This document shows, piece by piece, positions 1,113-17,306 of a stretch of DNA of 64,000 nt. The translations under genes and the position numbers were made by a program. This stretch comes from a virus, in the IMG/VR virus record IMGVR_UViG_3300025128_006599, positions 12,489-76,488 of that record. One strand, given 5' to 3'. Position 1 is the stretch's first letter; each line of letters starts with the position of its first letter. Below the pieces are notes generated by a model. That model saw nothing but the letters and a program-made list of their open reading frames with translations. It did not search any database and was not told the DNA's origin.

Positions 1113-1985
1113 ATGAAATTTGATACTGAATTGACTATGAGTAAACCTTTTGGGCCGTGGATGTTAAAAGGAAAATTACCGAAAGAAATTTTGGATAAAA
1201 TGATAAGAATCACGGATAAGATAACTGATGATGTTAAAAAAATAAGTGCAGGCCCAGGACTTGTAGGAATCATAGATGATGAGCCATGGATTCCACCAGA
1301 GATATTGAAGGATGAGGGAGTATTTGAATTTTTTACTGACTTGGGTAGTTACTTCATAAGAGAAAGTATGGATAGGATTAAACTTCAAGACGATAGAGCA
1401 GAGGTCATTTTTAGTGGTGGATATGGCACACCCTCAACTAAAAAAACACCTGTTCAAGGAGATGAATCTACTGAGGTACGTCCGAACTTAAAAATAGAAC
1501 TTGACTCAATGTGGATTGTGAATCAAAAACAACACGAATATAATCCAGCCCATCTACATACTAATGCAACAGTTTCTTCGGTTATGTATTTAAAGATACC
1601 TGAAGTGATGAGAAAAAGAAACATAGTTGGTAAACAAGAAACGGATGGTCGGATAGAATTCATATATGGTGCAAGTGGTGAGGTGTGGAAAACTTTTGAT
1701 CCGGGTACAATGTCTGTTTTACCTGAAGTTGGGGATATATTTATGTGGCCTTCTGATTTGTTACATACGGTTTATCCATTTATTGGTGAGGGTATACGGA
1801 GGTCAGTTTCATATAATTTAAGACATGAATTTTTACCACCAAATGGTACTCATCATATAAAACCTGGTGAGGAGACTATAACTCACCAGAAAGAGGAAAA
1901 AATAATTTCATTGGAACAGGCCAGATTACAAACCAAAGTTGAGTTGTTGGAGGATAAGTTAAACAAATTACAGGATAAAAAATAA
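1113..1985 (+). CDS. 2OG-Fe(II) oxygenase (TIGR02466-like)
   Basis: WIVNQ..EYNPAHLH, SSVMYL, P-x-VGDIFMWPSDLLHTVYPF..RRSVSYN. Confidence 0.8.
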   Translation: MKFDTELTMSKPFGPWMLKGKLPKEILDKMIRITDKITDDVKKISAGPGLVGIIDDEPWIPPEILKDEGVFEFFTDLGSYFIRESMDRIKLQDDRAEVIFSGGYGTPSTKKTPVQGDESTEVRPNLKIELDSMWIVNQKQHEYNPAHLHTNATVSSVMYLKIPEVMRKRNIVGKQETDGRIEFIYGASGEVWKTFDPGTMSVLPEVGDIFMWPSDLLHTVYPFIGEGIRRSVSYNLRHEFLPPNGTHHIKPGEETITHQKEEKIISLEQARLQTKVELLEDKLNKLQDKK

Positions 1986-3049
1986 TGAGGGTAATCAACA
2001 ATAGAATTGATGGTAAGATTTATGATGCGTATTATTCCACTGGTGGTGGAACATTAGTTGGTGGTGGAAGTGATGTTTGGGTGAATCATTGGATAAAAGA
2101 AATTTCACCACATTTAGAAGTACAACCGGTATTATTGATTCATCGTGTCAGACCAACCGATACAACTATTGAAGAACAAGATAAATTATTTAAAGAACTT
2201 AATCCTAATTTAAAGGTTCTTTGGCAAGGTGATGATATACATTATTTTGGTAGTGTGTTGAAGAGTGCTCGTAGAATAAATATTCTACATGGATATTATG
2301 CACCACATAAATATATTACTGATAACAAGGATAAGATACATAGTACTGCTGTTCATTGTAATGTGAATAAAAATCTAAAAGCTAACGTAAAATTAGGACT
2401 TGAACATTCAAGACATTTTTACATGGATCCTCGTTGGGAAGATGAAATTGTAAAATTATCAAAATATCCTTTTTGGATTGGTATTGATTCACCCGATTTA
2501 GAAAATCATCATGACCATTTATTACACATTCCAAATTTTTATGAATTTAAACATAATTTAGATGTAACCGATAATAATAAAGTTGGATTTGCCTCAAGAA
2601 TGGAGACACGAAAATGTCCACATTATTTACAACGAATACCAAGTGTTTTATGTACCGAATCTAAGGATGTACATTGGTGGGTAAAAAATTTAAATTGTGA
2701 TATTAGAGGTTGGAAAATTTATAAATTTAATTACAAGATGTTGGATAAGTTTTATAGATTAGATTGGGGAATATCACATTCAGCTCATATCTACGAACCA
2801 TTTGGTTATAGTATATTTCAGGCATTAGATTATGGTAAAATGCCAATTTTATCAAGAGATTGGTATACAGATATTGATTATCCTTATAGAGCTTTTGGAA
2901 TGCATGAATTTTATCATGAGTGGAAAAGGGTATGTGAATTGTCTGTAGAGGCACGTAGAGAATGGGTTTTCTTATTAAGGGAATATTTTAAAAAGTATGA
3001 TGATAAAAAAAGATGGACAGAACAATTGTTAGAAATATACAATAAGTGA
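1985..3049 (+). CDS. GT4-like (GT-B) glycosyltransferase
   Basis: N-terminal GGGSDVW; C-terminal EPFGYSIFQALDYGKMPI resembles the GT4 E-x7 motif. Confidence 0.7.
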   Translation: MRVINNRIDGKIYDAYYSTGGGTLVGGGSDVWVNHWIKEISPHLEVQPVLLIHRVRPTDTTIEEQDKLFKELNPNLKVLWQGDDIHYFGSVLKSARRINILHGYYAPHKYITDNKDKIHSTAVHCNVNKNLKANVKLGLEHSRHFYMDPRWEDEIVKLSKYPFWIGIDSPDLENHHDHLLHIPNFYEFKHNLDVTDNNKVGFASRMETRKCPHYLQRIPSVLCTESKDVHWWVKNLNCDIRGWKIYKFNYKMLDKFYRLDWGISHSAHIYEPFGYSIFQALDYGKMPILSRDWYTDIDYPYRAFGMHEFYHEWKRVCELSVEARREWVFLLREYFKKYDDKKRWTEQLLEIYNK

Positions 3050-3057
3050 TATTTATT
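3048..3057 (+). promoter_or_regulatory. Putative late promoter motif GATATTTAT
   Basis: Recurrent intergenic TATTTAT motif, about 24 nt upstream of the TTG start at 3081, followed by SD GGAGA. Confidence 0.55.
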
Positions 3058-3080: not shown

Positions 3081-4145
3081 TTGGCAACAACAGCAAATCA
3101 AAATTTAAGTTTGGGAAAGTTACAAAGAGCAATTAGTTCATCTCATGGAGATTATACAAGTGAATATAAATTATCACTTGCTAATGCTGGTGCTGAAGTA
3201 CAAATGAGTGATTTTTCAATTAGTAGTTGTGGAAGTGCTTTGGGTGGATATGAATATCTGTGGGAACAAACTAAAGAGGGATACTTTATTGATATTCAAA
3301 ATGCAGGAGACCTTTGGATTTCCGCGATTGGTTCCAATAATGACCATTTTACTTGGGACAATGGTTTAGCAGCAAACTCAGTATTATCTGCACCAGACCT
3401 ACACGGATATTCTGCATCATTCTCATCATCTGCAATTTCAAATGCACGTACGGGTGATGGTAGTGAAAACCCATTTCCTGCTGGTTCAAATAATTTTTTA
3501 GCTGTGATTACTGGATCTTATGCTGATGATAAACAATCAGATGGATATAATGACCACGCAACAAACTATAATACTGATCTTTTCAAAAGTATTACGATTG
3601 TAGATAGTTATGGTGGTTCACCAACTTGTTTATTAGAGGGAACACCTATTGATATGGCAGATGGAACTACAAAAAATGTAGAGGATTTACAAATTGGTGA
3701 TTGGATATTATCAATGAACATGCCAGGTCAGTTAGATGAAGATGAACGAAATTGGCAAAAATGTAGATTTCCTGACTCTGATGATTTCACACAACATTCA
3801 GCAAGTGTTCAAGATATTAACTTCGATTTTTCTTATAATTATTGGAATATAAATAACGGACAAGAGTTAATTACTGGTGAACATGAAATGTTATATAGAC
3901 CACCACTAGCCTCAGGTGATTATGCATATGAACAACAATGGGGATGGTTGTACGTACCCAATATGTTGGTTGGTGGTAGTTTAATGGATAAAAATGGAAA
4001 TGCTGTAGAAATAACCTCGTTAGAAAATATAGTAGACCAAGATGAGGGATTTGAAGTAGTGCAAATTGATGTTGAACCATTGGATGTGTATTTTGGTAAA
4101 ACATTCTTAGTACATAACAAAGGAAGTGACGACGATCCATTCTAA
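3081..4145 (+). CDS. Ser/Gly-rich putative virion protein with C-terminal Hint domain (3627-4118)
   Basis: Block A CLLEGTPIDMADGTTKNVEDLQIGD, block B ITGEH, terminal FLVHN followed by 8 aa KGSDDDPF. Confidence 0.85.
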   Translation: MATTANQNLSLGKLQRAISSSHGDYTSEYKLSLANAGAEVQMSDFSISSCGSALGGYEYLWEQTKEGYFIDIQNAGDLWISAIGSNNDHFTWDNGLAANSVLSAPDLHGYSASFSSSAISNARTGDGSENPFPAGSNNFLAVITGSYADDKQSDGYNDHATNYNTDLFKSITIVDSYGGSPTCLLEGTPIDMADGTTKNVEDLQIGDWILSMNMPGQLDEDERNWQKCRFPDSDDFTQHSASVQDINFDFSYNYWNINNGQELITGEHEMLYRPPLASGDYAYEQQWGWLYVPNMLVGGSLMDKNGNAVEITSLENIVDQDEGFEVVQIDVEPLDVYFGKTFLVHNKGSDDDPF

Positions 4146-4196
4146 TAAAAATAATTTTAAAGGTTTTAAATATCTTTTACTTAAAGGACAAACAGT

Positions 4197-4916
4197 ATGA
4201 TTTGGTTATCACGTGTTCATAAACATACAGAATTAAAAGAATATATATTAGATTATATAGAAACTACTGAAAATAAAGATATAGATTTTGAAAAAGTTTC
4301 CGTATCTGATTATCATTCACAAAATCCTTATGATCAAGAACAAAAAGCATTAGAAAAGAAGGCTTGGTTAAGTCAAAAAAACGAACCTTCTTGTGAAAAT
4401 GATCCTGATAAGTGGGAACCAGATTGGGGTAGATTATCTCAAAGATATGCAAATATAAATGATGAGGAAAATAATCTACATCTTGGGCCAATCCCATTTA
4501 AAAATCCACCACCATATCAAGATAAAGTTGTTAAAGCTATACACGAAAATCTTTATATTGCATTAGAGGGTATGAAATGTTTTGAATATAAGATTAGTAA
4601 TATGTGGTTTCATCAATATAATAAAGAAAGTTTTTTTGATTGGCACACACATCCACAATCAAATTATTCTGCAGTTTATTTTGTTGAATTACCATCAGAT
4701 GAACTTGCTACTGAGATATATGGTGTAAAAAAATTAAAACCACGTGAGGGTGATTTATTAGTTTTTCCTGGTTTTTTACCTCATAGGTCACCAGTCAATA
4801 ATACTGATTCTCGTAAAACCATAATATCTATGAATTTTGATGTTAATTGTTCTCCTACTGATTTTCCTGATTGGAAAGAGAGAAAAAATAAAATGATAGA
4901 AGAACGTTTAAAATAA
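4197..4916 (+). CDS. 2OG-Fe(II) oxygenase
   Basis: MWFHQY..DWHTHP..YSAVYFVE, EGDLLVFPGFLPHRSP..RKTIISMN. Confidence 0.8.
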   Translation: MIWLSRVHKHTELKEYILDYIETTENKDIDFEKVSVSDYHSQNPYDQEQKALEKKAWLSQKNEPSCENDPDKWEPDWGRLSQRYANINDEENNLHLGPIPFKNPPPYQDKVVKAIHENLYIALEGMKCFEYKISNMWFHQYNKESFFDWHTHPQSNYSAVYFVELPSDELATEIYGVKKLKPREGDLLVFPGFLPHRSPVNNTDSRKTIISMNFDVNCSPTDFPDWKERKNKMIEERLK

Positions 4917-4919
4917 AAA

Positions 4920-5636
4920 ATGAGTATTTTAAATTATGATTATATAAAAACTCACATAACTACGAATAATGGAGAAGAAGTTCCTTATCGATGGTCTCAT
5001 GGTGCAAGTGATATGCATCTTGGTGATGGATTAATAATCTACACACTAATAAATTTCTTTAGATTCAAATCATTAGTATGTTTAGGAAGTGGTGGTGGAT
5101 TCATACCAAGAATAATGACACAAGCTCGATATGATTTATCTGAACAAGGATTTTATAGTGATGTATGTATGGAGTGGGGAGATAATGGAAGTACTTATCT
5201 TGTAGATGCTGTAAATGGTTTTAATGGTGAGGTAGATTGGGAAGATAAAGAAAGTTTACTTCGTAGACATTTTCATCCAAAGTTTATAAAAGATACTACA
5301 GAAAATGCTTACTACAATTTTTTTGTTAAACAAGATATAAAAATAGATTTACTACATATAGATGCAGACCATACTTTTGAGGGTGTAAAAAAAGACTTTG
5401 ATTTGTATTCAAAGATTATGAACAAAGGTGGTATTATCACTATACACGATACAGATAAAAATTATGTGGATAATTTTGTAGAAATAGACGGACACGAGGG
5501 AGATGATTTAACTGGCCCGAGTGAATTTATTAAAACAATAGATAAAAGAAAGTTTGAAGTTTTGAACTTCTTTAATCATGGGATTAGAAAAGATAAACCA
5601 AGTTCAACAGGCTTAACAATTATAAGAAAAAAATGA
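4920..5636 (+). CDS. Class I SAM methyltransferase (Methyltransf_24-like)
   Basis: VCLGSGGG motif I; IDLLHIDADHTFEGVKKD..GGIITIHD. Confidence 0.85.
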   Translation: MSILNYDYIKTHITTNNGEEVPYRWSHGASDMHLGDGLIIYTLINFFRFKSLVCLGSGGGFIPRIMTQARYDLSEQGFYSDVCMEWGDNGSTYLVDAVNGFNGEVDWEDKESLLRRHFHPKFIKDTTENAYYNFFVKQDIKIDLLHIDADHTFEGVKKDFDLYSKIMNKGGIITIHDTDKNYVDNFVEIDGHEGDDLTGPSEFIKTIDKRKFEVLNFFNHGIRKDKPSSTGLTIIRKK

Positions 5637-6472
5637 ATTTAGTTACGGTATGTGGTCACAATACCACAATGTTATACCATATGTTACGACATTATTATCC
5701 ATATGTCAAGGATTTTTTTGTAATAATTTATGCACACCATAAAAATGATCCTGTTATAGAGGAGGCAACTTCTATATTGGATAAACTTAATTTAAAACCA
5801 CATAAGATTGCAATAGAAGAACCATTTAATTGGAATCGTGTAACAGAACTTTACAATGAAACTAAAAGATTAAAACCAGATGAATGGTGGATAGTGGCGG
5901 ATGATGATGAATTACAATTATATTTAAAACCAATTCAAGATATAGTTTATGAGTGTGAGGATAGTGGTTGGGAATTTGTAACAGGAGGTTTTATAGATAG
6001 AATAGGTGAAAATGGAACATTTCCCAAGATAAATGATGATAGTGATATTTGGAAAGAGATGCCAAATGCTGGGTTTTTTCGATATCCATTAAGTTTAGCA
6101 AATCCAAATAAAGTTACTTTAATGAAAGGTAGTGTAGATGTTGTATCTGGTCAACATTATGTAGATTTTGGTGATGGAAAAAACTCTTGGGGAACATCCC
6201 ATCCAAAAAGATATCCGATTGAAAAGAACTTTACACAAGTTCATCACTTTAAATGGGACTATTCGGTATTACAAAGACTTAAAGAGGTTAGTAAGTCTAA
6301 CTTGATAGAGTCATTTTCAGAAGAATATAAAAAAATGTTGTCTGCAATTGAATACTTGGACTATAAAATGGATTTGGGTGAAAGGGAATATATGTTTCAA
6401 AGAGTAGATAAACCAAACTATAATTCTTATAGGTATTGGGATAGATTAAGAAAGATAATAACGGAAATTTGA
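5633..6472 (+). CDS. GT2-like glycosyltransferase
   Basis: MLRHY, EWWIVADDDE (DxD), GQH, VHHFKW pattern of Glyco_tranf_2_4-type enzymes. Confidence 0.7.
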   Translation: MNLVTVCGHNTTMLYHMLRHYYPYVKDFFVIIYAHHKNDPVIEEATSILDKLNLKPHKIAIEEPFNWNRVTELYNETKRLKPDEWWIVADDDELQLYLKPIQDIVYECEDSGWEFVTGGFIDRIGENGTFPKINDDSDIWKEMPNAGFFRYPLSLANPNKVTLMKGSVDVVSGQHYVDFGDGKNSWGTSHPKRYPIEKNFTQVHHFKWDYSVLQRLKEVSKSNLIESFSEEYKKMLSAIEYLDYKMDLGEREYMFQRVDKPNYNSYRYWDRLRKIITEI

Positions 6473-6473
6473 T

Positions 6474-7445
6474 ATGAGATTTGAAAGTGTGGGTACAGAA
6501 TCAGTTCGTATTGGTATGAACAATAAAATGGGTTCAACATCTATTAAGTCATTAGATGGTTTAAAAACTTTTGAAACTTTTGACAAGGATAAAATTACGA
6601 TAGTTTTATTGAGAAACACATACGACAAGTTTAAAAGTGGTTATTTACAAGAATTAAATGGATTCTTTACCTTTGAACCACCACCATTAACTAATTATTT
6701 ATTAAATTCAGAATCAATAGATGATAAAATATCTACTTCGGATAAATCTGTTGAAGAGATACTAAAAAATTTATATGGTGGTAATGCATCATACGAAAAT
6801 TTACAAATGTTTGGATTTACAACAAACCCTAATATGACAAAATTTTGGAATAAATTTTCTAAAGGATATTATAAAACATTTATACATGATGATGATGTTA
6901 CTCGTGATGGTATAGATATTATTGCTAACCTACATGATATTAATAAAAACATCGGTTGGATGTATTATAATCATGGGATATTTTGGAAGTGGAATAACTT
7001 TAATGATATTTCGTTGTTTGAATTAGGACAGCTTCCAAACGTGTATTTTTTAGAATTAAAAGATTTAAGTAATCCAAAGTTTTTAGAGTGGTTAAAAAGT
7101 AAAGACGGTGATTGGGAAATAGTACAGGAAATTCCACATAAAAATGTAAAGTCAAATACTATTTTAGAAAAACAATTAAATGTATTTTGGAAAGAATATT
7201 ATAGTGATGATATCTTACCAGGTAGAAAATTATTTAACCCATTGAGTGAATCCAACTTTTCTTTTAATACATTTACAAATCCTAAACGAGTTTTAGGTGG
7301 TGATATTGATGCACATTCATTTCTTTTACATACCATACCAGTAAAAAACTTTACACCAATCAATATGTTAAAGTTTATATTGAACTCACAACAAAAAGAA
7401 GTGGATTACATACGAAAATTTAATAAAAGATATATAACATTATGA
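6474..7445 (+). CDS. Divergent sulfotransferase-like protein (paralog of 28239-29051)
   Basis: KMGSTS (5'-PAPS loop-like) and LRNTYDKFKSG (3'-PB-like). Confidence 0.5.
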   Translation: MRFESVGTESVRIGMNNKMGSTSIKSLDGLKTFETFDKDKITIVLLRNTYDKFKSGYLQELNGFFTFEPPPLTNYLLNSESIDDKISTSDKSVEEILKNLYGGNASYENLQMFGFTTNPNMTKFWNKFSKGYYKTFIHDDDVTRDGIDIIANLHDINKNIGWMYYNHGIFWKWNNFNDISLFELGQLPNVYFLELKDLSNPKFLEWLKSKDGDWEIVQEIPHKNVKSNTILEKQLNVFWKEYYSDDILPGRKLFNPLSESNFSFNTFTNPKRVLGGDIDAHSFLLHTIPVKNFTPINMLKFILNSQQKEVDYIRKFNKRYITL

Positions 7446-8251
7446 TTAAAGAACAATTTGAAGAACAAAAATATTTACAACTTAAAGATTTTCTTAATGA
7501 AGACGAAAAAAATAAACTAACACAAGTAATTGAAGAATTAGAGAATCATAAATTTTGTAACAAAACAACTTCAGCAAACAATCACTATGTTGAAAATACA
7601 GGAAGAAGACAGGCCATATTATTTTCTGAAAATTTTAATACACAAGATGTTAATCTTGTAGAGGAGATTCGTGATTGGTTCAAAATTTCGGTTGATAAAT
7701 TGTTTCCAATAGTTTTACCTAAAGTGGATTCAGTTTTCAGAGAGTTGGGATATGATAATTTAAGATTATTGAGAACAACTATACATTATATTCCACCTGA
7801 AGAACAGGCTCAAAATATTCATCATGATGGTGATGCATTAGAAAAAACATTTTTTGTAAGTATTCCATTACACGATACTAATCCTGAACAAGGCACTACT
7901 GAATTATATAATGATAAATATGTTGGACATATAAGAGATAATTATGGAATTTATTCTTGGAGTAAATTAAAAATAATGTGGTCGGATGCTAAAACTAAAG
8001 AATTATTAAAAAAGGCAAAAAACAATAATGTTTACAATTATGGTGATGCCATTCTCTATAGGGATATAACATTTCACAGAGGGGGTACGAATAACAGTAA
8101 TATAGTTAGAAAATTTTTACATTTATTTCTAACTTATTCTGATACAAAGTGGGTTGATTATTATGATTTTACGAATACCGGTGGACTTAAAATGATACGG
8201 TCAGACAGTTATTTTGGAGATAGGTCTAAGATATCAAGTGGATATAATTAA
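7442..8251 (+). CDS. PhyH-family 2OG-Fe(II) dioxygenase
   Basis: QNIHHD, VSIPLHDT..QGTTE, GDAILY..TFHRGGTNNSNIVR. Confidence 0.8.
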   Translation: MIKEQFEEQKYLQLKDFLNEDEKNKLTQVIEELENHKFCNKTTSANNHYVENTGRRQAILFSENFNTQDVNLVEEIRDWFKISVDKLFPIVLPKVDSVFRELGYDNLRLLRTTIHYIPPEEQAQNIHHDGDALEKTFFVSIPLHDTNPEQGTTELYNDKYVGHIRDNYGIYSWSKLKIMWSDAKTKELLKKAKNNNVYNYGDAILYRDITFHRGGTNNSNIVRKFLHLFLTYSDTKWVDYYDFTNTGGLKMIRSDSYFGDRSKISSGYN

Positions 8252-8793
8252 TGTATATTGACCATGATAATAAACGAGTTTTCATTCACATACCTCGTAC
8301 TGGTGGTACAAGTATAAAGTCTGTACTAAATCTACATGATAAAATTTATAAAAAAGACGTTTATCATATGTCTGCAAATGAAATACCTAAAGAGTGTAAA
8401 GATTATTTTAAATTTGCATTTGTAAGAAATCCATTTGATAGGTTTGTTTCTTTGTATTTTTATAATAAATCTGATTATTATAAGGAGTTATTTCCAAAAA
8501 ATGAAACAACTTTGGTTGCAAAGAAGTATAATTTTAAAGAATGGTTAGATAATTTCCCATACAGACATATTCAACAAGTTGATTTTGGTTTAGAAAAATT
8601 AGATTATATTGGAAGATATGAAAATTTAGATTATGAGTTGGATGTAGTTTTCAACACTAAAGTAAATAAAGAAAATACTACTAAACACAACCATTATAGT
8701 TTTTACTATGATGATGAAAGTATTGAAAAAGTACGAGAATTATCATCAAAAGATATAGAAGTATATAATTATAGTTATAATGAAGATAAATGA
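8251..8793 (+). CDS. Sulfotransferase (Sulfotransfer_2 family)
   Basis: FIHIPRTGGTSI, FAFVRNPFDRFVSLY, DYIGRYENL. Confidence 0.9.
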   Translation: MYIDHDNKRVFIHIPRTGGTSIKSVLNLHDKIYKKDVYHMSANEIPKECKDYFKFAFVRNPFDRFVSLYFYNKSDYYKELFPKNETTLVAKKYNFKEWLDNFPYRHIQQVDFGLEKLDYIGRYENLDYELDVVFNTKVNKENTTKHNHYSFYYDDESIEKVRELSSKDIEVYNYSYNEDK

Positions 8794-8801
8794 TGGTTAT
8801 T

Positions 8802-8811
8802 GATATTTATC
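8802..8811 (+). promoter_or_regulatory. Putative late promoter motif GATATTTAT (inside inverted repeat ATTGATA-TT-TATCAAT)
   Basis: Recurrent intergenic motif upstream of 8849. Confidence 0.55.
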
Positions 8812-8848
8812 AATATATAATGTTTTCGAAAATTAAGGCGCAAAATTT

Positions 8849-10996
8849 ATGAATAAATACACTATGTTTGATTCGTTACTTAACGAAATAACCTCAAGTA
8901 ATTCCAAATGGCCATCACAAAATGTCGGTGTTATGGTTAGTTTTGATTATGTACCGATGACTATGGGTTCTTATGGATATGCAGATCCTATTGCAGGAAC
9001 TATATTTGAGAGTGGTAGTGGAGAATCTCAAACAGTAAAGACACCTGCAGTTAGAGGTTGGGATGAACACGAGTATAAGATTTACGAAATGAATACAAAT
9101 CCATATCATTGGATTAATTCATCTTCTCTTTATGGTCTTTATGATAGAATTACAACTTATGTTAGTGAGAGTAATTATGATAATGTTGTGTTATTAAAAC
9201 ACGTACAACCTAAAGGTCAAAATCCAAAAGAAGAAACCGTAACATTGTTTAGTCAAAGTCTTGCAACAAAAGATATTAGTTTAGAAGAGGTAGATTATTT
9301 ATATTTTTCAGATACTCATTTACAGGCAAGTAACTCATCAAGTTTTTATCTATTTCAAGAATCACCTTACCAAACTAATACTGGATTAAAACATATAGTT
9401 AGTGGTAGTTTTGAAAAAACAGAATTCCGTAGGATTTTAGGGAACTCTTCAGTTTCTTCATCATTAATACCACTTTGGGATTCAGATAATCCCACGACAA
9501 GTGTTTGGGGTCCTGATTATGTTATTAAAAATAATTCCGTTGATAATTCATTGGCAATTGGTGGTCAGATAATTAAAAGCTATAGACATACTGGTAGTAA
9601 CGCAGTCGTAGATACTTACGCTAGTTATACAGGAAGTCAGTATGTTGTAGAACAATTTATTCTACCTGAGTTCGTATCAGCAAGTTTAGCTTCTGCATCT
9701 TCTGATGCATTTGTGGATAAAATTGATTACCCATATGGAACAACAACATATTTAACAACACCACAAAAAAACATTTTACTACGAGATGATTGGGCTAGTG
9801 GACTTGGAAATAAAAGAACAAATAGAGTTAAAATGACTTCTGATGGTAGTACTTGGAAACAAATCTCAACACACCATTCAAAAGTAGTTCCTTCAGGTTC
9901 ATTAGTTAAAACACCAACTGGAGCAACTGCGATATCTGAATTGAACATTGGTGATACTGTTTCCTCTTATTTACCAGTTTCAATGTCTACAGAGGATTAT
10001 GGTTATTTGGATTATAGTACAAATACCTTAGTTGGTTCTACTTCAGATACTTCGGAAGTTGTGAATATCACATATGGTAAAGAATTTACCTATACACATA
10101 TCTACTATGAAGTAGGTGGAGAGGAAGTTCGAATTAGTGTATCTACTGAACATGCAAATCTTTTCATAAAAGATGTCGATACTAATATATGGGGATGGAA
10201 AACACCACCATTTTTAAAGGCTGGTGATAAGATGTTAAATACAAATGAACAAGAAATTGAAATCACCAGAATGATGGAGAACGTTACGGTAAATGAAGAC
10301 TATTATGCGTTAGATGTTGAGGATACGGACACGTATTTTGTTGATGGTATATTGATTCACAATGGTAATAAAAAAGGTACACCATCGGATGGAGCATATC
10401 AATTAGATTATTATGGAACTGGATGGTCTGGTACACTTCAACATAGAGTTTACGCTCGTGATGCAAGTTGGGGAGCAAGACAAGTATACTCTGATGCTGG
10501 TGGTAGTTGGTGGAACGTTCCGTCAAGTACTTGGAGGTCTTGGAAAACAACATATACTGCAACACAAGATGGAAGTGGTTTTGCATCTACAGTCGATGGT
10601 GGTAGTTATGATAATATTGCGATGTATAATTATCACGGAAATGGATACTCATTTAGTTCGTTTACTTGGACAGGTGTGGTAAGTGCTCAGAACAATTGGG
10701 GCCCTTCAAGTTACACTGCATTCTTTGCACATTATACAGGTCAAGGTACTTCAACTTTAGTGGTGGCACTAAGTGATTACAGAACAAAAACGAATGTGGA
10801 TTGGATTGGAAAATCCGAATCTGGTCTTAATATTTATGAGTTCTCATATAATTGGGATAAAGATACTCGTTATCAAGGAGTTGTTGCACAAGAACTTTTA
10901 AATACTAAATATGAAGATAGTGTAGTTCAAATTAATAGTGGATATTTAGGTGTAGATTATAGTAAATTGGATGTAGATTTCAAACAGGTTAATTAA
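8849..10996 (+). CDS. Multidomain protein: circularly permuted ATP-grasp-like N-terminus, Hint (9884-10363, Cys1 replaced by Val), 136 aa payload, peptidase S74 chaperone (10772-10996)
   Basis: SFDYVP..KIYEMNTNP, PDYVIK, YVVEQFI; VVPSGSLVKTPTG..ISELNIGD, STEH, ILIHN|G; SDYRTK..GLNIYEFSY..QGVVAQE..YLGVDYSKL. Hint and S74 calls are strong; ATP-grasp is tentative. Confidence 0.75.
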   Translation: MNKYTMFDSLLNEITSSNSKWPSQNVGVMVSFDYVPMTMGSYGYADPIAGTIFESGSGESQTVKTPAVRGWDEHEYKIYEMNTNPYHWINSSSLYGLYDRITTYVSESNYDNVVLLKHVQPKGQNPKEETVTLFSQSLATKDISLEEVDYLYFSDTHLQASNSSSFYLFQESPYQTNTGLKHIVSGSFEKTEFRRILGNSSVSSSLIPLWDSDNPTTSVWGPDYVIKNNSVDNSLAIGGQIIKSYRHTGSNAVVDTYASYTGSQYVVEQFILPEFVSASLASASSDAFVDKIDYPYGTTTYLTTPQKNILLRDDWASGLGNKRTNRVKMTSDGSTWKQISTHHSKVVPSGSLVKTPTGATAISELNIGDTVSSYLPVSMSTEDYGYLDYSTNTLVGSTSDTSEVVNITYGKEFTYTHIYYEVGGEEVRISVSTEHANLFIKDVDTNIWGWKTPPFLKAGDKMLNTNEQEIEITRMMENVTVNEDYYALDVEDTDTYFVDGILIHNGNKKGTPSDGAYQLDYYGTGWSGTLQHRVYARDASWGARQVYSDAGGSWWNVPSSTWRSWKTTYTATQDGSGFASTVDGGSYDNIAMYNYHGNGYSFSSFTWTGVVSAQNNWGPSSYTAFFAHYTGQGTSTLVVALSDYRTKTNVDWIGKSESGLNIYEFSYNWDKDTRYQGVVAQELLNTKYEDSVVQINSGYLGVDYSKLDVDFKQVN

Positions 10997-11466
10997 TGGA
11001 AACAAAATGGTGTAAAATGCATTGTGATATGCAATTATACAAAAAACAATCAGTTATAACCAACAATGTATATTGTGTAAGTGATATTAATAACCTTCCA
11101 AAAGAACAAATACAAATTGCATTAGATAATTTTGAAAAAAAATACAATTGGACACAATGGACGATTGAAGATGCAAAAAAGAGATTTAGAGAGAAATGGA
11201 ATTTATATTTAATTGAAACTAACGATTCATCTATTATTGGATGGGTTTGGGTTTCTTTTGAGGGAGAAGTTTTAAATGCATATTCCAATCATGATTTCAA
11301 AGAGTATTTTAGCGACAAAGAAGATATTACAGATATTATGGGTGCTTTTATGATGAATTACTCGAAGGACTTAGGTTATAAAAAATTATTTGCAAAAATA
11401 GAAGAGTGGAATAGACCAAGTTTAGAATGGGCAATTAGACATACTTGGGTTTATGATGAGGAATAA
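10996..11466 (+). CDS. GNAT-family N-acetyltransferase-like protein
   Basis: IIGWVWV strand; C-terminal LGYKKLFAKIEEWNRPSL is typical of GNAT motif B. Confidence 0.6.
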   Translation: METKWCKMHCDMQLYKKQSVITNNVYCVSDINNLPKEQIQIALDNFEKKYNWTQWTIEDAKKRFREKWNLYLIETNDSSIIGWVWVSFEGEVLNAYSNHDFKEYFSDKEDITDIMGAFMMNYSKDLGYKKLFAKIEEWNRPSLEWAIRHTWVYDEE

Positions 11467-11535: not shown

Positions 11536-11715
11536 ATGAATGATAATACAGAACAATTAATAATGTTAGAAGAACGAAAAGTAAAAGCATTAGAAAAAAT
11601 TGCTAATGTTTTGGATGCATTAACACTTTGGTTTGAAGATGTTGATAAAGATGAGTGGAGTGATAGATTACAATTTTATTTATCTGCTTTTTATGAAAAA
11701 GAGTCTGGGAAATAA
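11536..11715 (+). CDS. Small hypothetical protein, 59 aa (absent from ORF track)
   Basis: Translated by hand: MNDNTEQLIMLEERKVKALEKIANVLDALTLWFEDVDKDEWSDRLQFYLSAFYEKESGK. TAATG overlap with the next gene; AAGGG upstream. Confidence 0.75.
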   Translation: MNDNTEQLIMLEERKVKALEKIANVLDALTLWFEDVDKDEWSDRLQFYLSAFYEKESGK

Positions 11716-13202
11716 TGAAGTTAGGACTTATCGTTCCTTATAGAAATCGTCCTACTCACTTACAAAAATTTCGTGATTCAATTCACAAGTATTTTAAAAA
11801 TCAAGACTATGAATTGATAGTAGTGGAACAGGCAGATGATTTACCATTCAACCGTGGTAAGTTATTAAATATAGGTTTTAAAACCGCACTGAGAAAACAA
11901 TGTGATTATGTTGTGTTTCATGATATTGATATGCTGCCAATTGATGTGGATTATTCTTATTCGGAAGTTCCAATACATCTATCTACTAATTTTATAAATT
12001 CTAAAGAAGAGATATTCAAAACTTATTTTGGTGGAGTAACTATGTTTCCCATTTCTTTGTTTGAAAGAGTAAATGGATATTCAAATGATTATTGGGGTTG
12101 GGGATTTGAAGATGATGATTTGTTAATGCGATTAACTGAGGCAAATGTCTTTACTGATTTTGAATATTATGAAGTACCAAAACATTTGACATCTGGCATT
12201 TATCTACACGGAGATAGAAGTTATGTTGAATGTCCAAATATTATAAATGTAAGAAAAGATTTTACCATACAAATCACATTTAAACCAGATGAGATAATTT
12301 GTGATTATGAAAAACCTTATGACGATTATTCTGTATTTTCTATACCAGGATACAATACTTCAATAAGTTTTAATTCTTTTAATCGTTACAAATTTGAATG
12401 TTGGAATGAAAAGGGTAATTTATATCATATTGATTCTCAGTACGATTACTCACGATTAACACAAATCACAATAACTTATGAAAAAGAGGCTGGTCTTATC
12501 ATAATGTACCAAGATGGAAAAGAAATCGGTAGTAAAGTTGTAAAAGAATTGTTAGATACGAGTCCACCTAATTTTTTCATCGGTACGGGAATAGATGAAA
12601 TGGAAGGTGTTGATATCCGTAGTTTTCGTGGATTTGTAAAAGATTTTTGTTATTGGGATACTTCTCTTGCTGCAAACGAAATTGAGGAATTTTCTAAAAA
12701 TCCAGGTATGGGATATATGTGTGATAGTGGACAATATAGTTCTTCACGTAAACTAAAAATATATTTTGATTTTAAACATTTAAAGTTGAATAATCAATTT
12801 CAATATGAAAAAGGTAAAGTGATGAATTTAGTAAATCCAAGATATCAGGCAGTAACATATAATTGTATTCCTAAATCTCAACTTGAACTTGATAGGAAAA
12901 AAATTGCAATACCTGCAAGAAGAAAATCCACTTTTAAGTTGTTAAAACATAAACCACAAGGATATACAGATGGTAGTTGGAAATCAAGAGTTACAAGATT
13001 AAATCAAATTCGATTTTATGATGTAGTGTTGAATAATAAAACAAATTATAAAAAAGAAGGATTGAGTAGTATACGATTTAAAAAAATATCTGAAACTTCA
13101 GTTGATAATTACACAATGTTGTCAGTAGACTTGACAGGTGGCCCACGTGATGTTGGGATAATAAAAAACTATATGGATGAGATAAGTAAGGAAGACAAAT
13201 GA
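11715..13202 (+). CDS. GT7 (beta-1,4-galactosyltransferase-like) with inserted LamG/ConA-like domain
   Basis: IVPYRNR, FNRGKLLNIG, VFHDIDMLP, FGGV, NGYSNDYWGWGFEDDD; central beta-sandwich MYQDG..FFIG..FRGFVKDFCYWD. Confidence 0.85.
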   Translation: MKLGLIVPYRNRPTHLQKFRDSIHKYFKNQDYELIVVEQADDLPFNRGKLLNIGFKTALRKQCDYVVFHDIDMLPIDVDYSYSEVPIHLSTNFINSKEEIFKTYFGGVTMFPISLFERVNGYSNDYWGWGFEDDDLLMRLTEANVFTDFEYYEVPKHLTSGIYLHGDRSYVECPNIINVRKDFTIQITFKPDEIICDYEKPYDDYSVFSIPGYNTSISFNSFNRYKFECWNEKGNLYHIDSQYDYSRLTQITITYEKEAGLIIMYQDGKEIGSKVVKELLDTSPPNFFIGTGIDEMEGVDIRSFRGFVKDFCYWDTSLAANEIEEFSKNPGMGYMCDSGQYSSSRKLKIYFDFKHLKLNNQFQYEKGKVMNLVNPRYQAVTYNCIPKSQLELDRKKIAIPARRKSTFKLLKHKPQGYTDGSWKSRVTRLNQIRFYDVVLNNKTNYKKEGLSSIRFKKISETSVDNYTMLSVDLTGGPRDVGIIKNYMDEISKEDK

Positions 13203-14617
13203 AGTTAGGAGTTTGTATACCATACAGAGATAATGGTGATGGTGTTAGAAAGAAACATTTGGATACATTGGTTCCACATTTAGAAAAGTTTTTTGGTGAA
13301 CGAGATATAGAATTTAGATGTTATGTTGGACACCAAGTAGATGATAAAAAGTTTAATCGTAGTGGAACTAAAAATGTAGCCTTTCTTGCTGCCAAAGAAG
13401 ATGGTTGTGATTATGTGGCGTTTCATGATGTGGATATGTTACCACAAGATGATTGTGATTACTCACATCCAGGTGATACACCAAAACATATAGCAACTTA
13501 TCTTTCACAATGGAATTACACTTTACGAGATATCCATTACTTTGGTGGTGTGGTGATATTCACGATAGAACAATTTGAAGAAGTGAATGGATACCATACC
13601 AACTATTGGGGTTGGGGTATGGAAGATGACGACTTATTTTGGAGATGTATTCAGAAAGGATATTTTAAACCAAGTTATATTGAAGGCCCTGGTATATCAA
13701 AGGTATTAGAATTTGATGGAAAGTCCACTTATATAAAAATACCACCAAGTAATACACTACTTCACATTCCGAATAAATCTTTTGAAATAGAGATGATTGT
13801 TTATGGTGAGATAGGAGACGAAAGTAAAGAGTATATGATTGGTCAAGAAATTCCATACATAAAATATCCGATTGTCTCTAAAAAGGGTTGGGACTTTGAC
13901 ATATGTTATAATAATTCTAAGGCATATTCCTATACACTTTGGAATTTTAGAAATGAATTACATTATGGTTGGATGATGAGATATCCTAATCAATGGAGTA
14001 AAGTAAATGTAAAGGTTGATACTGACAAGAAACTCAGAACCATTACTGTAAATGATGTGGTTTATGATGAAAAGTTTGGTGAACAAGAATCAAATCTATC
14101 AATTGACCAGACACTTAAACGTTACGGAAATATACCATTTTGGATTGGTCGGAATTCACCAGGTTCACATCAAACCAATATCTTCAAAGGAAAACTTCAA
14201 TCTTTGAAAATGTATAATTTTAAAGGTGAAAATGTACTACATTATGATATGAATAAATCATATAGAATGGAAAAGATATTAGATTTAAGTGGTAATGAAA
14301 ATCATGGTGAATTAGTAATTGGTAAGGGAAGAGTCACTAAAGATGATGTTTCTAAAATTCCACATACGATTGTACCTGATAGAAGATATGGAACTATGGA
14401 GTGTATGTATCACGATGATGAGGGAATAGTCGATAAAAAGTTTGCTGGTGATCCTGAGGCTACTGCAAAAAATGAAGTAATATATAAAAAGAAAATGCAA
14501 AAAAATCAAATAGATATAGATGGTGATGAATATGGGTTGAGAGAAATGAAATATCAAATAGATAGCACTGATACTATTTATAACGGACACAAAATAATAA
14601 ATGTGAGGTTTTTGTGA
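13199..14617 (+). CDS. GT7 glycosyltransferase with inserted LamG-like domain (paralog of the preceding gene)
   Basis: CIPYRD, FNRSGTKN, FHDVDMLP, NGYHTNYWGWGMEDDD; LEFDG..FWIGR..FKGKLQSLKMY..DLSGNENHG. Confidence 0.85.
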   Translation: MKLGVCIPYRDNGDGVRKKHLDTLVPHLEKFFGERDIEFRCYVGHQVDDKKFNRSGTKNVAFLAAKEDGCDYVAFHDVDMLPQDDCDYSHPGDTPKHIATYLSQWNYTLRDIHYFGGVVIFTIEQFEEVNGYHTNYWGWGMEDDDLFWRCIQKGYFKPSYIEGPGISKVLEFDGKSTYIKIPPSNTLLHIPNKSFEIEMIVYGEIGDESKEYMIGQEIPYIKYPIVSKKGWDFDICYNNSKAYSYTLWNFRNELHYGWMMRYPNQWSKVNVKVDTDKKLRTITVNDVVYDEKFGEQESNLSIDQTLKRYGNIPFWIGRNSPGSHQTNIFKGKLQSLKMYNFKGENVLHYDMNKSYRMEKILDLSGNENHGELVIGKGRVTKDDVSKIPHTIVPDRRYGTMECMYHDDEGIVDKKFAGDPEATAKNEVIYKKKMQKNQIDIDGDEYGLREMKYQIDSTDTIYNGHKIINVRFL

Positions 14618-15894
14618 AAATAAAACACGTTAATTTAGTTGAGAACATATTTGAGCAAAATGATATAGAATTACTACAAAATATTCATATACCGACAAAA
14701 AATAATTCACTTTTTTTAAGTGATCATTTTGTACATCAGAATCCACAATTTACAAAACTTGTTAGATATTTAAATGATATTGAGTTATGGTCAAAAAGAA
14801 TACCTGAGGTTATAAACTTAGAATCTTTTCACTCTTTAAGAATGGAATTAATTGAAGATTTTGAAAAATACAAAACTACAAATAAGAAGAAGGATATTCA
14901 ACATAAATTTCTTATTGATATTGATAATAATGTTGGATATTATAAAAACTTCAAGGTGGAAATCTCATCAAGAGTGTTATTGGTTGAGGGTATAACACAA
15001 AAACATATCAATAAATGGAGGTTGAAATCCTCTTTTTGGTATGAAATTTATGCGAACTACAGAAATCGACCTGAATTATTTGAACCCGAAAAATGGAATA
15101 AATTAGATTGGATGGAGAGAGATGAAGCGTATGATAACTATATTGATTGGTGTGGGGGTTTATATGAGATAAGACATAGAAAAGGTAATTATATAATTCA
15201 ATTTGATAATGTTGATATTCTTAATGTAAGTGATGAAGATAATCTGTATAAAAAAATAAAGGCATATATATTGATAAGTAGGAGATGGACTTCCAGAGGA
15301 AATCCGAAAATGGGAACCGTATTTGGTTTTAGTATATATGATTCCACTTGGACTGAAAAACGACTTAGAAAAGAAATGAATGATTTTAAGGAGTTAATTT
15401 TAGATAATATTGAGGAGTTAATTTCAAATTTAAGTGGTAGATGGTTGTTTGCAGGTATTTTATTATGTTTTATCGATAATGGTACTGATGAAGAAAAATT
15501 TATTGCTTTAAGTTTACTTATACTAATGTTAATCAATAGAGTAAACTTTAAGGCTAGTAGTAGTCTTGCTCCAAGAGGTATAAGGGATATATGGTCTCAA
15601 CAAAATTATATGATGGAAGAAGAAAAAGAATTTTTAATTAATAAAGTTTTACCATTAACAAAGAAAAAAGATTTTGAATCTTTTGTAAAAGAATTTATAG
15701 ATGTTATTGTAGTAGGTGGTGTTCAAGATGAGAATGAAGTTATTATAACACCTCACACAAAGCCAATACCAATCGGGCAAGAAGATTTAGAACGACATCA
15801 ATTATTTCCAACTTTAGCTCTTCTATGGAATAAAGAAGAAACTTCTAAATTTAAAAACTTATTTTTAAAAACACTAAATGAGAAACTTTCATGA
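14614..15894 (+). CDS. Hypothetical protein
   Basis: 426 aa ORF coupled at both ends (GTGA/ATGA overlaps); no motif recognised. Confidence 0.6.
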   Translation: MKIKHVNLVENIFEQNDIELLQNIHIPTKNNSLFLSDHFVHQNPQFTKLVRYLNDIELWSKRIPEVINLESFHSLRMELIEDFEKYKTTNKKKDIQHKFLIDIDNNVGYYKNFKVEISSRVLLVEGITQKHINKWRLKSSFWYEIYANYRNRPELFEPEKWNKLDWMERDEAYDNYIDWCGGLYEIRHRKGNYIIQFDNVDILNVSDEDNLYKKIKAYILISRRWTSRGNPKMGTVFGFSIYDSTWTEKRLRKEMNDFKELILDNIEELISNLSGRWLFAGILLCFIDNGTDEEKFIALSLLILMLINRVNFKASSSLAPRGIRDIWSQQNYMMEEEKEFLINKVLPLTKKKDFESFVKEFIDVIVVGGVQDENEVIITPHTKPIPIGQEDLERHQLFPTLALLWNKEETSKFKNLFLKTLNEKLS

Positions 15895-17306
15895 CAGATG
15901 TAACCAAAGATAATCCTTTTTATATAAAGAATAAAGAAAAACTCGATGAAGTAGGTTCAGGTATGTGTTTGGCAAAATGGACACAAGTAACACTTCAATT
16001 GCAATCTGGACATAATCATAGTTGTCACCATCCAAGAACACATAAAATCAATTTAAAAGAAATTGAAAGAAATCCAAGTGCTCTACACAATACACGATAC
16101 AAAAAAACACGAAGACATGAAATGTTAACGGGTAAACGACCAGTCGAGTGTGATTATTGTTGGAATGTAGAAGATAATTCAGATAGATTTTCAGATAGAG
16201 TTTTTAAGTCTTCTGAGAGTTGGTCATTACCACATTTTGATGAAATAACTCAATCAAATTGGAGAGAGGATTTCAATCCAAGATATGTGGAGGTGGCATT
16301 CTCAAATGCCTGTAACTTTAAATGTAGTTATTGTGGGCCTGCATATTCTTCTACTTGGATGGAAGAAATTAATAAACATGGTGGCTATCCCACTACAGAT
16401 AAATTCAATGATAATGATTGGTTAAAACGAGAGGATAAAATGCCCATACCACATAGAGATTATAATCCATATGTTGAGGCATTTTGGAAGTGGTGGCCAA
16501 AACTATATCGAGATTTACATACTTTTAGAATCACAGGTGGTGAACCATTACTATCAAAGGATACTTGGGGTGTGATGGACTATATTATTGATGAACCTAA
16601 TCCAAATAAAGATTTACAATTGGCAATTAATAGTAATTTGGGAGTACCTGATGGGTTAATTAATAGATTTATAGAAAAGATACAAAAAATTGAGGACAAA
16701 GAAAAGGTAAAAGAATTTATTGTTTTTACTTCAGCTGATACTTGGGGAGAACAATCAGAATATATAAGAAATGGATTGGAATTTAATCGTTTTTGGGACA
16801 ATATGAACAAAATATTAGAAAAGTGTCCACGAGTAAATCTAACCATTATGTCAACATATAATGCACTTTCCGTTCCTAATTATCATAAGTTAATAAATGG
16901 TGTTTATGATTTAAAACAAAAATATGGTTCTCAAGATAGATATTGGAAGTCTGCAGTATTTTTGGATTCAAGTTATTTACGACATCCAGAACATCAAACC
17001 GTACAAGTTTTGCCAGATAAATGGACAACCAATATTTTTAAACAAGCACAATTAACAGATTATCTTGCAGTTCCTTCGTTTGAACATAAGTATGTTGGAT
17101 ATTCAGATATTGAGGTACAAAAAATTAAAAGAATATGGGATTGGAGAGTTGCAACTTGGCCAGAAAAGGATAGTCAAGTAATGAATCATAGATATAACTT
17201 TGGTAAATATTTCCAAGAACATGATAAAAGAAGAGGTACAGATTTTTGTAAAACATTTCCTGAATTAGAGGAATTTTATCAAGATTGTTTGGAGATTAAA
17301 CTATGA
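15891..17306 (+). CDS. Radical SAM protein with N-terminal twitch-like Cys domain
   Basis: CLAKW..SCHH..ECDYCW; CNFKCSYC; ITGGEP. Confidence 0.9.
   Translation: MTDVTKDNPFYIKNKEKLDEVGSGMCLAKWTQVTLQLQSGHNHSCHHPRTHKINLKEIERNPSALHNTRYKKTRRHEMLTGKRPVECDYCWNVEDNSDRFSDRVFKSSESWSLPHFDEITQSNWREDFNPRYVEVAFSNACNFKCSYCGPAYSSTWMEEINKHGGYPTTDKFNDNDWLKREDKMPIPHRDYNPYVEAFWKWWPKLYRDLHTFRITGGEPLLSKDTWGVMDYIIDEPNPNKDLQLAINSNLGVPDGLINRFIEKIQKIEDKEKVKEFIVFTSADTWGEQSEYIRNGLEFNRFWDNMNKILEKCPRVNLTIMSTYNALSVPNYHKLINGVYDLKQKYGSQDRYWKSAVFLDSSYLRHPEHQTVQVLPDKWTTNIFKQAQLTDYLAVPSFEHKYVGYSDIEVQKIKRIWDWRVATWPEKDSQVMNHRYNFGKYFQEHDKRRGTDFCKTFPELEEFYQDCLEIKL

Follow-up and report, generated by a model that had tools for sequence, protein, structure and literature searches.

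When a phage encodes two Hint domain proteins with complementary catalytic residues near one another, do they act together as donor and acceptor, or does each process itself? The question is raised by the window analysed here, that is, the whole 64,000-nucleotide (nt) stretch covering bases 12489-76488 of a 76.5-kb IMG/VR viral contig (record IMGVR_UViG_3300025128_006599), which is estimated to be ~42% complete and represents an uncultured marine phage. We read the two proteins, here called Hint A and Hint B, as independent autoprocessing proteins from the BIL-like branch of the Hint superfamily and not as a donor/acceptor pair. This reading is given a probability of roughly 0.55, and the chemistry it implies is predicted from sequence. 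The features of the two genes, in window positions, are:

3081-4145, + strand: Hint A open reading frame (ORF), TTG start, 354 amino acids (aa); orthologues start M-[AS]-T
3081..3626, + strand: Hint A N-terminal part (N-part), aa 1-182; N-terminal helices, an immunoglobulin-like (Ig-like) beta-sandwich at ~aa 45-178 and a linker ending ..YGGSPT
3627..4118, + strand: Hint A Hint domain, aa 183-346 (164 aa); Cys1, TxxH and His-Asn, no endonuclease
4119..4145, + strand: Hint A tail KGSDDDPF and stop codon; K347, S349, P353 and F354 invariant
8849-10996, + strand: Hint B ORF, 715 aa; fourth of the five genes of an accessory cassette
8849..9883, + strand: Hint B N-domain, aa 1-345, enzyme-like; family-invariant D33, E80-x-N82, P222-D223 and K227
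9884..10363, + strand: Hint B Cys-less Hint, aa 346-505 (160 aa); V346, S432xxH435, E491, D494 and H504-N505
10364..10768, + strand: Hint B 135-aa module rich in Gly, Ser, Thr and aromatic residues, aa 506-640; starts GNKKGT, confined to the Hint B clade
10769..10996, + strand: Hint B S74-like intramolecular chaperone, aa 641-715, and stop codon; S641-D-Y-R-T-K646

Hint A with and without Hint B

A sequence-only reading of this locus had cast Hint A as an acyl donor and Hint B as the source of the acceptor. Its description of the two ORFs is accurate, as Hint A has Cys1 and an 8-aa tail starting with Lys, and Hint B has Val for Cys1 and His-Asn followed by Gly. In Hint A, C183 is encoded at nt 3627, block B reads T265-G-E-H268 and the domain ends ..VEPLDVYFGKTFLVHN (H345, N346) before KGSDDDPF. 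V346 of Hint B (nt 9884) falls in the Cys1 column, block B is S432-T-E-H435, and the domain end ..VEDTDTYFVDGILIHN (H504, N505) precedes G506-NKKGT. The two domains are related (BLASTP E 6e-8, 23% identity over 177 aa). They do share the insertion that had been noted after block A, but as a family trait, found in 13/13 aligned phage Hints and so not special to this pair.

The co-occurrence of the two genes was then checked in related genomes. Gene order is fixed in 11 viral and many metagenomic loci: giant fibre-like ORFs (1000-2550 aa) are followed by an optional second Hint protein and then by the Hint A block, made up of the orthologue of the upstream ORF w1985, Hint A, a methyltransferase, the conserved ORF w5633, two GT7 genes and a radical SAM gene. 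The five-gene cassette of which Hint B is part lies between w5633 and the first GT7 gene in loci L064, L066 and L067 (Hint A 90, 79 and 76% identical); L064 breaks off inside Hint B. In L065, where Hint A is 88% and its neighbours 86-88% identical, GT7 comes right after w5633 and the cassette is missing. It is also missing from L073, whose gene order diverges more, and from more distant relatives with enough flanking sequence. No Hint B orthologue was found in eight related IMG/VR records searched whole, which are fragments (27-67% complete), in the 10-kb flanks of syntenic viral loci, or in any locus with a Hint A identity of <=63%. Hint A was kept with all its catalytic residues where Hint B was absent, an outcome that the sequence-only reading had itself named as a refutation of the pairing. 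Among cultured phages, neither the region (megablast) nor Hint B (tblastn) had a match.

From this distribution, Hint B is predicted to have arrived together with the sulfotransferase/dioxygenase cassette. Four genes are linked on a contig from an unrelated phage (L053:6060-9344): a sulfotransferase with 53% identity to that at 8251-8793, an ORF like that at 10996, a 324-aa ORF and a gene for a 451-aa B-like protein, which consists of the N-domain and the Cys-less Hint only. This linkage suggests a mobile functional module, and because the sulfotransferase, the 10996-like ORF and the B-like gene occur together there, the cassette genes would be natural companions of Hint B.

Val occupies the Cys1 position (V346) in 7/7 Hint B homologues, of which the close ones form only six clusters, and among 75 loci related to this phage Cys1 is missing only from Hint B orthologues. 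None of the 20 diverse members of the Hint B family that were aligned (alignment A4) has Cys at position 1 of its first Hint, which argues that the Cys-less state is an old, selected trait of that family.

If the two proteins did cooperate, the alpha-amine of Gly506 in Hint B would capture the Hint A thioester, and the 182-aa Ig-like part would become joined to the C-terminal fragment of Hint B. Such chemistry is conceivable, given a full thioester set in Hint A and a full Asn-cyclisation set in Hint B; ligation to amines by BIL domains has precedent (PMC8616854; Aranko 2013, as cited in PMC7664689), and a promoter-like motif is common to both genes. However, Hint A is fully conserved in many genomes without Hint B, L065 lacks the whole cassette, and the Cys-less state is a family trait unrelated to Hint A. 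A Gly alpha-amine that is not activated would also need some docking mechanism to serve well as a partner, and no such mechanism is apparent. We consider A-to-B ligation highly improbable. Since Hint A is conserved without Hint B, the cassette is variable and the Cys-less state belongs to a separate family, the proposed pairing is not supported, and the two are best described as independent proteins of separate families.

Fold and predicted chemistry of Hint A and its class

Hint A has 574 homologues, mostly in marine metagenomes. In the alignment of 31 orthologues (54-92% identity), C183, T265, H268, H345, N346, K347, S349, P353 and F354 are invariant (31/31), and the first five of these form the catalytic set. 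The alignment agrees with the earlier prediction that Hint A can form a thioester. The Hint stands at the C-terminal end in 31/31 of these orthologues, among which no Hint-free allele was seen. Mean pairwise identity is 73% for the Hint, 78% for the tail and 58% for the N-part.

Single-sequence Pfam scores fell below threshold for the Hint regions of both proteins, and the fold was therefore tested by other means. An AlphaFold2 model of Hint A from the 31 orthologues had a predicted local distance difference test (pLDDT) score of 67 overall and of 70-87 over most of the N-part. Residues 184-347 of this model matched Tetrahymena BIL2 (Foldseek E 5e-6, VIA Z 11.6), and further VIA matches were the Clostridium thermocellum BIL (Z 10.9), Hedgehog (Z 10.6) and inteins, all within the range 11.6-10. 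A phage Hint-domain profile (A3), built from 13 sequences, matched PDB entry 2lwy at 8.4e-11 and BIL2 at 5e-9, followed by 8w20, an intein C-terminal splicing domain, at 4.6e-5 and by mini-inteins at 1e-3 or worse; BIL structures are thus nearer than inteins by profile.

The N-part of Hint A gave VIA matches to Ig-like domains of T5 pb6 (Z 8.1), lambda gpV (7.2) and the phi29 head (7.1). It is modelled as an Ig-like domain of the kind found on phage tail and head decoration proteins, the middling Z scores being read as a claim about fold class only. The ESM Atlas gave no usable match for the N-parts of Hint A or Hint B. Hint A, a conserved protein, is probably virion-associated and late-expressed.

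Neither protein resembles a canonical class 1 intein, as the +1 residue is Lys in Hint A and Gly in Hint B, not Cys, Ser or Thr, and the Hint A orthologues gave no sign of a host protein that also exists without the Hint. Hint A has instead what is found in A-type BIL domains (Amitai 2003; Dassa 2004; C. thermocellum BIL4, PDB 2lwy): Cys1 (C183), TxxH (T265/H268), His-Asn (H345/N346), no homing endonuclease and no Cys, Ser or Thr at +1 (K347). Like these domains, which are the best profile and structure matches here, it is sited in a variable non-housekeeping protein. Hint B has counterparts of block B and His-Asn (S432/H435, H504/N505), G506 at +1 and no homing endonuclease, but V346 where the nucleophile would be. 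In contrast to A-type BIL domains, the Hints described here are phage-borne and known from sequence, that of Hint A lies at the very C-terminal end of a structural protein with an Ig-like part, and they add an ~18-aa loop after block A and a strongly conserved Lys directly after His-Asn. Hint A seems to be a non-canonical Hint that is active in thioester formation.

In the predicted course of events, an N-to-S acyl shift at the T182/C183 junction of Hint A would give a thioester that frees the Ig-like part. By default the thioester would be resolved by water, or else by an amine, the nearest candidate being the invariant K347 of its own tail; N346 would then cyclise and the tail would be detached. 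The Cys-less Hint of Hint B, which has kept H504-N505 and with them, as had been noted, only the residues predicted for C-terminal cleavage, could at most cleave between N505 and G506.

It had also been held as established that neither protein can splice, which is too strong. Reviews describe cleavage as the main outcome for BIL domains (PMC7664689, PMC7765530). To go by the titles of two papers cited there (Dassa 2004, Aranko 2013), these domains can also splice without a +1 nucleophile, and Tetrahymena BIL2 has been reported to join its N-flank to a Lys epsilon-amine in an isopeptide bond with no ATP (PMC8616854). The BIL2 of Tetrahymena BUBL (PDB 6tmm, 6y75) is the top structural match of Hint A, and its Lys acceptor parallels the conserved Lys here; it is flanked by ubiquitin-like domains, whereas the flanks in Hint A are Ig-like on one side and a tail of 8 aa on the other, and conjugation by Hint A is predicted at most.

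Hedgehog/Hog proteins (PDB 1at0) offer another parallel, with a cargo followed by a C-terminal Hint and N-terminal cleavage through a thioester. The G-C-F junction of Hedgehog recurs in many phage paralogues; the Hint A junction differs (T-C-L), and Hint A keeps the His-Asn that Hog domains lack. By analogy with Hedgehog or BUBL, the Hint A thioester might react in trans with a Lys on a second virion protein, or with the amine or hydroxyl of a glycan or lipid produced by the tailoring enzymes encoded nearby, which would anchor the Ig-like domain covalently. The sequence-only reading had likewise allowed for another virion or small-molecule nucleophile. The Hedgehog layout with its G-C-F junctions, a Hint better conserved than its cargo, and a Hint A block that holds methyltransferase, GT7 and radical SAM genes beside giant fibre genes are in line with this idea. 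However, the Hint is followed by only 8 aa and by no region for sterol or adduct recognition, synteny within phage structural modules says little about functional coupling, and the acceptor is hypothetical. We hold conjugation in trans to be quite unlikely.

The best BFVD structural matches were gp110 of Erwinia jumbo phage Y3 ("virion structural protein, contains intein domain") and three proteins of phage NCTB (BN7874_132/135/136). These tail or virion proteins carry the same Hint subtype at the C-terminus, and tail-fibre genes come after theirs. They are annotated only as containing an intein domain, and their tails read TDIVAKAEKL, APVDQKH and KVD; Hint A differs from them in N-part and phage lineage. 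The optional second Hint proteins of the relatives (360-1750 aa) have a like layout, and all keep Cys1 after a Gly-rich linker (GGGGG-C(F) junctions, often G-C-F) and end in His-Asn plus three to six residues (AKD, GKGE, VHDK, AGKAP, AGKGGP).

The wider family was sampled as the best 150 of 13,165 full-library profile matches (E up to 1e-3) together with Hint A and Hint B, 152 proteins in all; the counts are uncorrected for relatedness, and the representatives are <50% identical to one another. Cys1 was present in 244/251 complete N-terminal ends and His-Asn in 268/274 C-terminal ends, with Phe at position 2 in 199/242 and Lys at +1 in 136/268. Lys occurred in 86/91 tails of <=20 residues, 16 of which consist of one residue, mostly Lys, and it made up 17% of tail residues compared with 4.7% overall. 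Lys was likewise present in 46/47 short tails from the 75 related loci. Hint A is accordingly placed by its architecture in a widespread phage class in which a fibre or Ig/fibronectin type III (FN3)-type protein is followed by a Gly/Ser/Thr-rich linker, Cys, Hint, His-Asn and a short Lys-containing tail. This class of BIL-like C-terminal Hints on phage structural proteins is large and uncharacterised. Within the library covered, the literature search found no functional study of Hint-terminated phage structural proteins, and such studies may exist.

Among the 152 proteins, 63 are tandem Hint arrays (linkers K, KGG, KC), 59 have a single C-terminal Hint, and eight have an internal Hint with a C-flank opening in Lys. 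The arrays of P0129, P0130, P0149, P0150, P0239 and P0255 run head to tail with up to ~10 Hints, separated by linkers of 1-5 residues that start from Lys (HN-K-G-G-C-F). P0142, P0144, P0268 and P0214 have an internal Hint, a KGS, KGG or KGT start and then an Ig/FN3-looking C-flank of ~100-140 aa. The ~137-aa C-flanks of P0142 and P0144 open with KGSN.EP and resemble the Hint A tail, and a KGS..EP start is found on the 98-138-aa C-flanks of P0142, P0144 and P0268. Given these relatives with a long C-flank, the 8-aa tail of Hint A may be the remnant of a longer C-extein.

The abundance of Lys raises the possibility of an acyl transfer within Hint A, in which the epsilon- or alpha-amine of the Lys after His-Asn would attack the thioester. 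Asn cyclisation would then free the Hint and leave the short tail bound to the Ig-like part by a peptide or isopeptide linkage, which amounts to BIL-type splicing. The frequency of Lys at +1, in short tails (where it is often the sole residue) and in the related loci is consistent with this, and so are the invariant tail motif KGSxxxP(F), the KGS..EP openings of long C-flanks, as expected of a true C-extein, and the nearest structures, which are BIL2 (Lys isopeptide, PMC8616854) and the C. thermocellum BIL. Yet this is candidate chemistry in a group of domains that mainly cleave (PMC7664689, PMC7765530), the Lys could instead serve catalysis, solubility or recognition, and there is no obvious benefit in adding one Lys or an 8-aa peptide. 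We consider Lys-directed transfer unlikely.

Several points weigh against reading Hint A and Hint B as independent, self-cleaving proteins. For all members, we infer the cleavage, its products and the nucleophile from sequence, and the virion location of Hint A and Hint B likewise. The Hint A model is moderate overall (pLDDT 67), with junction residues below 50. The Hint and its tail are more conserved than the cargo, as if the Hint did more than remove itself, and simple hydrolysis would not account for the Lys found almost universally after His-Asn. Finally, absence of Hint B elsewhere in the relatives' genomes is not proven, because the records are fragmentary (27-67% complete).

By analogy with BIL2, the class of C-terminal Hints with Lys tails might be an ATP-free protein-ligation device, in which the Cys1 thioester is passed to the Lys after His-Asn or to a Lys of a partner. 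We regard this as a tentative proposal, and a rather doubtful one.

The Hint B family

Support for a Hint in Hint B comes from a profile built without it, to which it scores 79 bits. Its N-domain is homologous to those of P0145, P0132 and P0153 (BLASTP 5e-22 to 2e-16), and D33, E80, N82, P222, D223, K227, E491, D494, H504 and N505 are invariant in alignment A4. In 19/152 proteins the N-domain and Cys-less Hint are followed by one to three Cys-bearing Hints; a non-Hint C-flank occurs only in the Hint B clade. In other phages, genes of this family adjoin DNA polymerase, sliding clamp, clamp loader and 2-oxoglutarate (2OG) oxygenase genes. From these alignments, the Hint B family is best taken to be distinct from that of Hint A and marked by a Cys-less Hint in permanent fusion with a conserved N-domain that looks enzyme-like. 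An AlphaFold2 model of Hint B from a 7-sequence alignment reached pLDDT 27 and gave no usable fold.

The N-domain motifs D..E-x-N-T and P-D-x-x-x-K, invariant in P0145, P0132, P0153, P0154 and others, resemble the Mg- and ATP-binding motifs of ATP-grasp ligases in reversed order, but no ATP-grasp match was obtained by a Pfam scan of 20 members, a PDB profile search, a search of the genome with PF07478 and PF13535, or the Atlas.

Hint B offers the best case for one further explanation, that one Hint, or both, may be without catalytic activity and stay in the mature protein in a structural or assembly role. Its N-terminal nucleophile is missing, block A is degenerate and the profile alignment starts from position 17 on, and non-cleaving domains of the Hint fold exist, such as AXH, which these profiles also match. 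Silence would be hard to square with the invariant Cys1, TxxH and His-Asn of the Hint A orthologues, and His-Asn, E491 and D494, invariant over 20 diverse B-family members, are hard to explain without chemistry. A structural role is improbable in our view, and the His-Asn retained by Hint B argues for C-terminal cleavage, as in the independent autoprocessing that we favour.

Downstream of its Hint, the Hint B lineage appears to have replaced the usual Cys-bearing Hints with the 135-aa module and an S74-type chaperone. A degenerate second Hint was rejected as an identity for the module (hhalign probability 0.6%), its MAFFT co-alignment in A4 being spurious. The last 75 aa of Hint B matched phrog_6121 at 4.7e-14, and the C-terminal end is 40% identical over 67 aa to the C-terminus of PAE2_13 (annotated pfam13884), with LSDYRTK aligned to LSDRRMK. 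The S-D-x-R-x-K in these residues is shared with the Peptidase S74 chaperone of endosialidase-type tail spikes and fibres. In contrast to that domain, the one in Hint B scores below the Pfam cut-off (14.5 bits against 22; a Pfam S74 scan of the whole record was empty) and sits downstream of a Hint within one chain. Hint B appears to combine a Cys-less Hint and an S74-type chaperone, which would put two different self-cleaving modules in a single protein.

Gene neighbourhood, promoter motif and significance

The window is AT-rich and almost all of its genes are on the + strand, with terminase, portal and major capsid genes at 46-58 kb. In its major capsid protein the phage shares 52-58% identity with Microcystis phage Mel-JY01, Flavobacterium phage immuto and an uncultured phage, and on this basis it is classed as a distant T4-like myovirus. 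The genes and motifs around Hint A and Hint B are:

1985..3049, + strand: w1985, 354-aa ORF, no family assigned; directly upstream of Hint A in all syntenic loci, orthologues 42-97% identical
3050..3056, + strand: promoter-like TATTTAT, 31 nt upstream of the Hint A start
4197-4916, + strand: 2OG-Fe(II) oxygenase (Pfam); syntenic only in the closest relatives L064, L066 and L067
4920-5636, + strand: methyltransferase (Pfam); syntenic in most relatives
5633-6472, + strand: w5633, conserved ORF of no known family; syntenic in most relatives
6474-7445, + strand: cassette ORF 1, no family assigned; first of the five-gene cassette 6474..11466
7442-8251, + strand: PhyH-like dioxygenase (Pfam); cassette
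8251-8793, + strand: sulfotransferase (Pfam); cassette
8804..8810, + strand: TATTTAT motif, 45 nt before the Hint B start
10996-11466, + strand: cassette ORF 5, no significant family
11715..14617, + strand: two GT7-type glycosyltransferases (Pfam); they come after w5633 in the conserved block

No Pfam, PHROG or NCBIfam match was found for w1985, and NCBIfam gave nothing useful for the region. The tailoring enzymes that had been described around the Hint genes were largely recovered by Pfam (2OG and PhyH oxygenases, methyltransferase, sulfotransferase, GT9, GT7), except for an acetyltransferase, which was not found. L064, L066 and L067 have an extra ORF of 545-548 aa between Hint A and the 2OG oxygenase (L064:4343-5989, L066:6154-7791, L067:8095-9741), where the window has a gap of 51 nt only (4146-4196).

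Sugar- and protein-tailoring genes continue downstream of the Hint genes in a very long series (11715-38000), larger than is usual in a phage. The part scanned (11715-17306) holds GT7 enzymes, one with a match to Laminin_G_3 (ConA-like), and a radical SAM enzyme (Pfam). Upstream of the window (L021:2175-11783) are giant ORFs of 1074 and 2042 aa and a 184-aa ORF, none with a Hint domain, unlike the fibre-like proteins of 1723-1750 aa in relatives, which do carry one.

Each Hint gene had been credited with a TATTTAT motif of its own, and the motif is there, but it is not specific to the Hint genes. The motif (A/T)ATATTTAT occurs at 3050, 8804, 11677, 35899, 37975, 49690, 54442, 55540 and 58587, that is, in 9/12 intergenic gaps of the + strand, including those preceding structural genes. 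There it lies 21-121 nt upstream of gene starts and is ~24 times denser than in the rest of the window; over the window as a whole TATTTAT is not enriched. It looks like a candidate general promoter motif of the phage, perhaps a late one.

If the Hints only cleave, they would be a further self-removing C-terminal maturation domain on phage structural proteins, beside the S74 chaperones. The result would then be of value for annotation, since the mature products of many fibre genes would be shorter than their ORFs imply. The Hint B family, with its enzyme-like domain, Cys-less Hint and additional Hints, is an abundant, uncharacterised phage architecture, here accompanied by sulfotransferase and dioxygenase genes. 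Should the conserved Lys accept the acyl group, intein-like, ATP-free formation of peptide or isopeptide bonds on virion proteins would be widespread, with relevance to virion assembly and possible use as a ligation tool. Were the class a ligation device, virions would carry isopeptide-capped or covalently cross-linked fibre and decoration proteins, and Hint A would be its most conserved small member.

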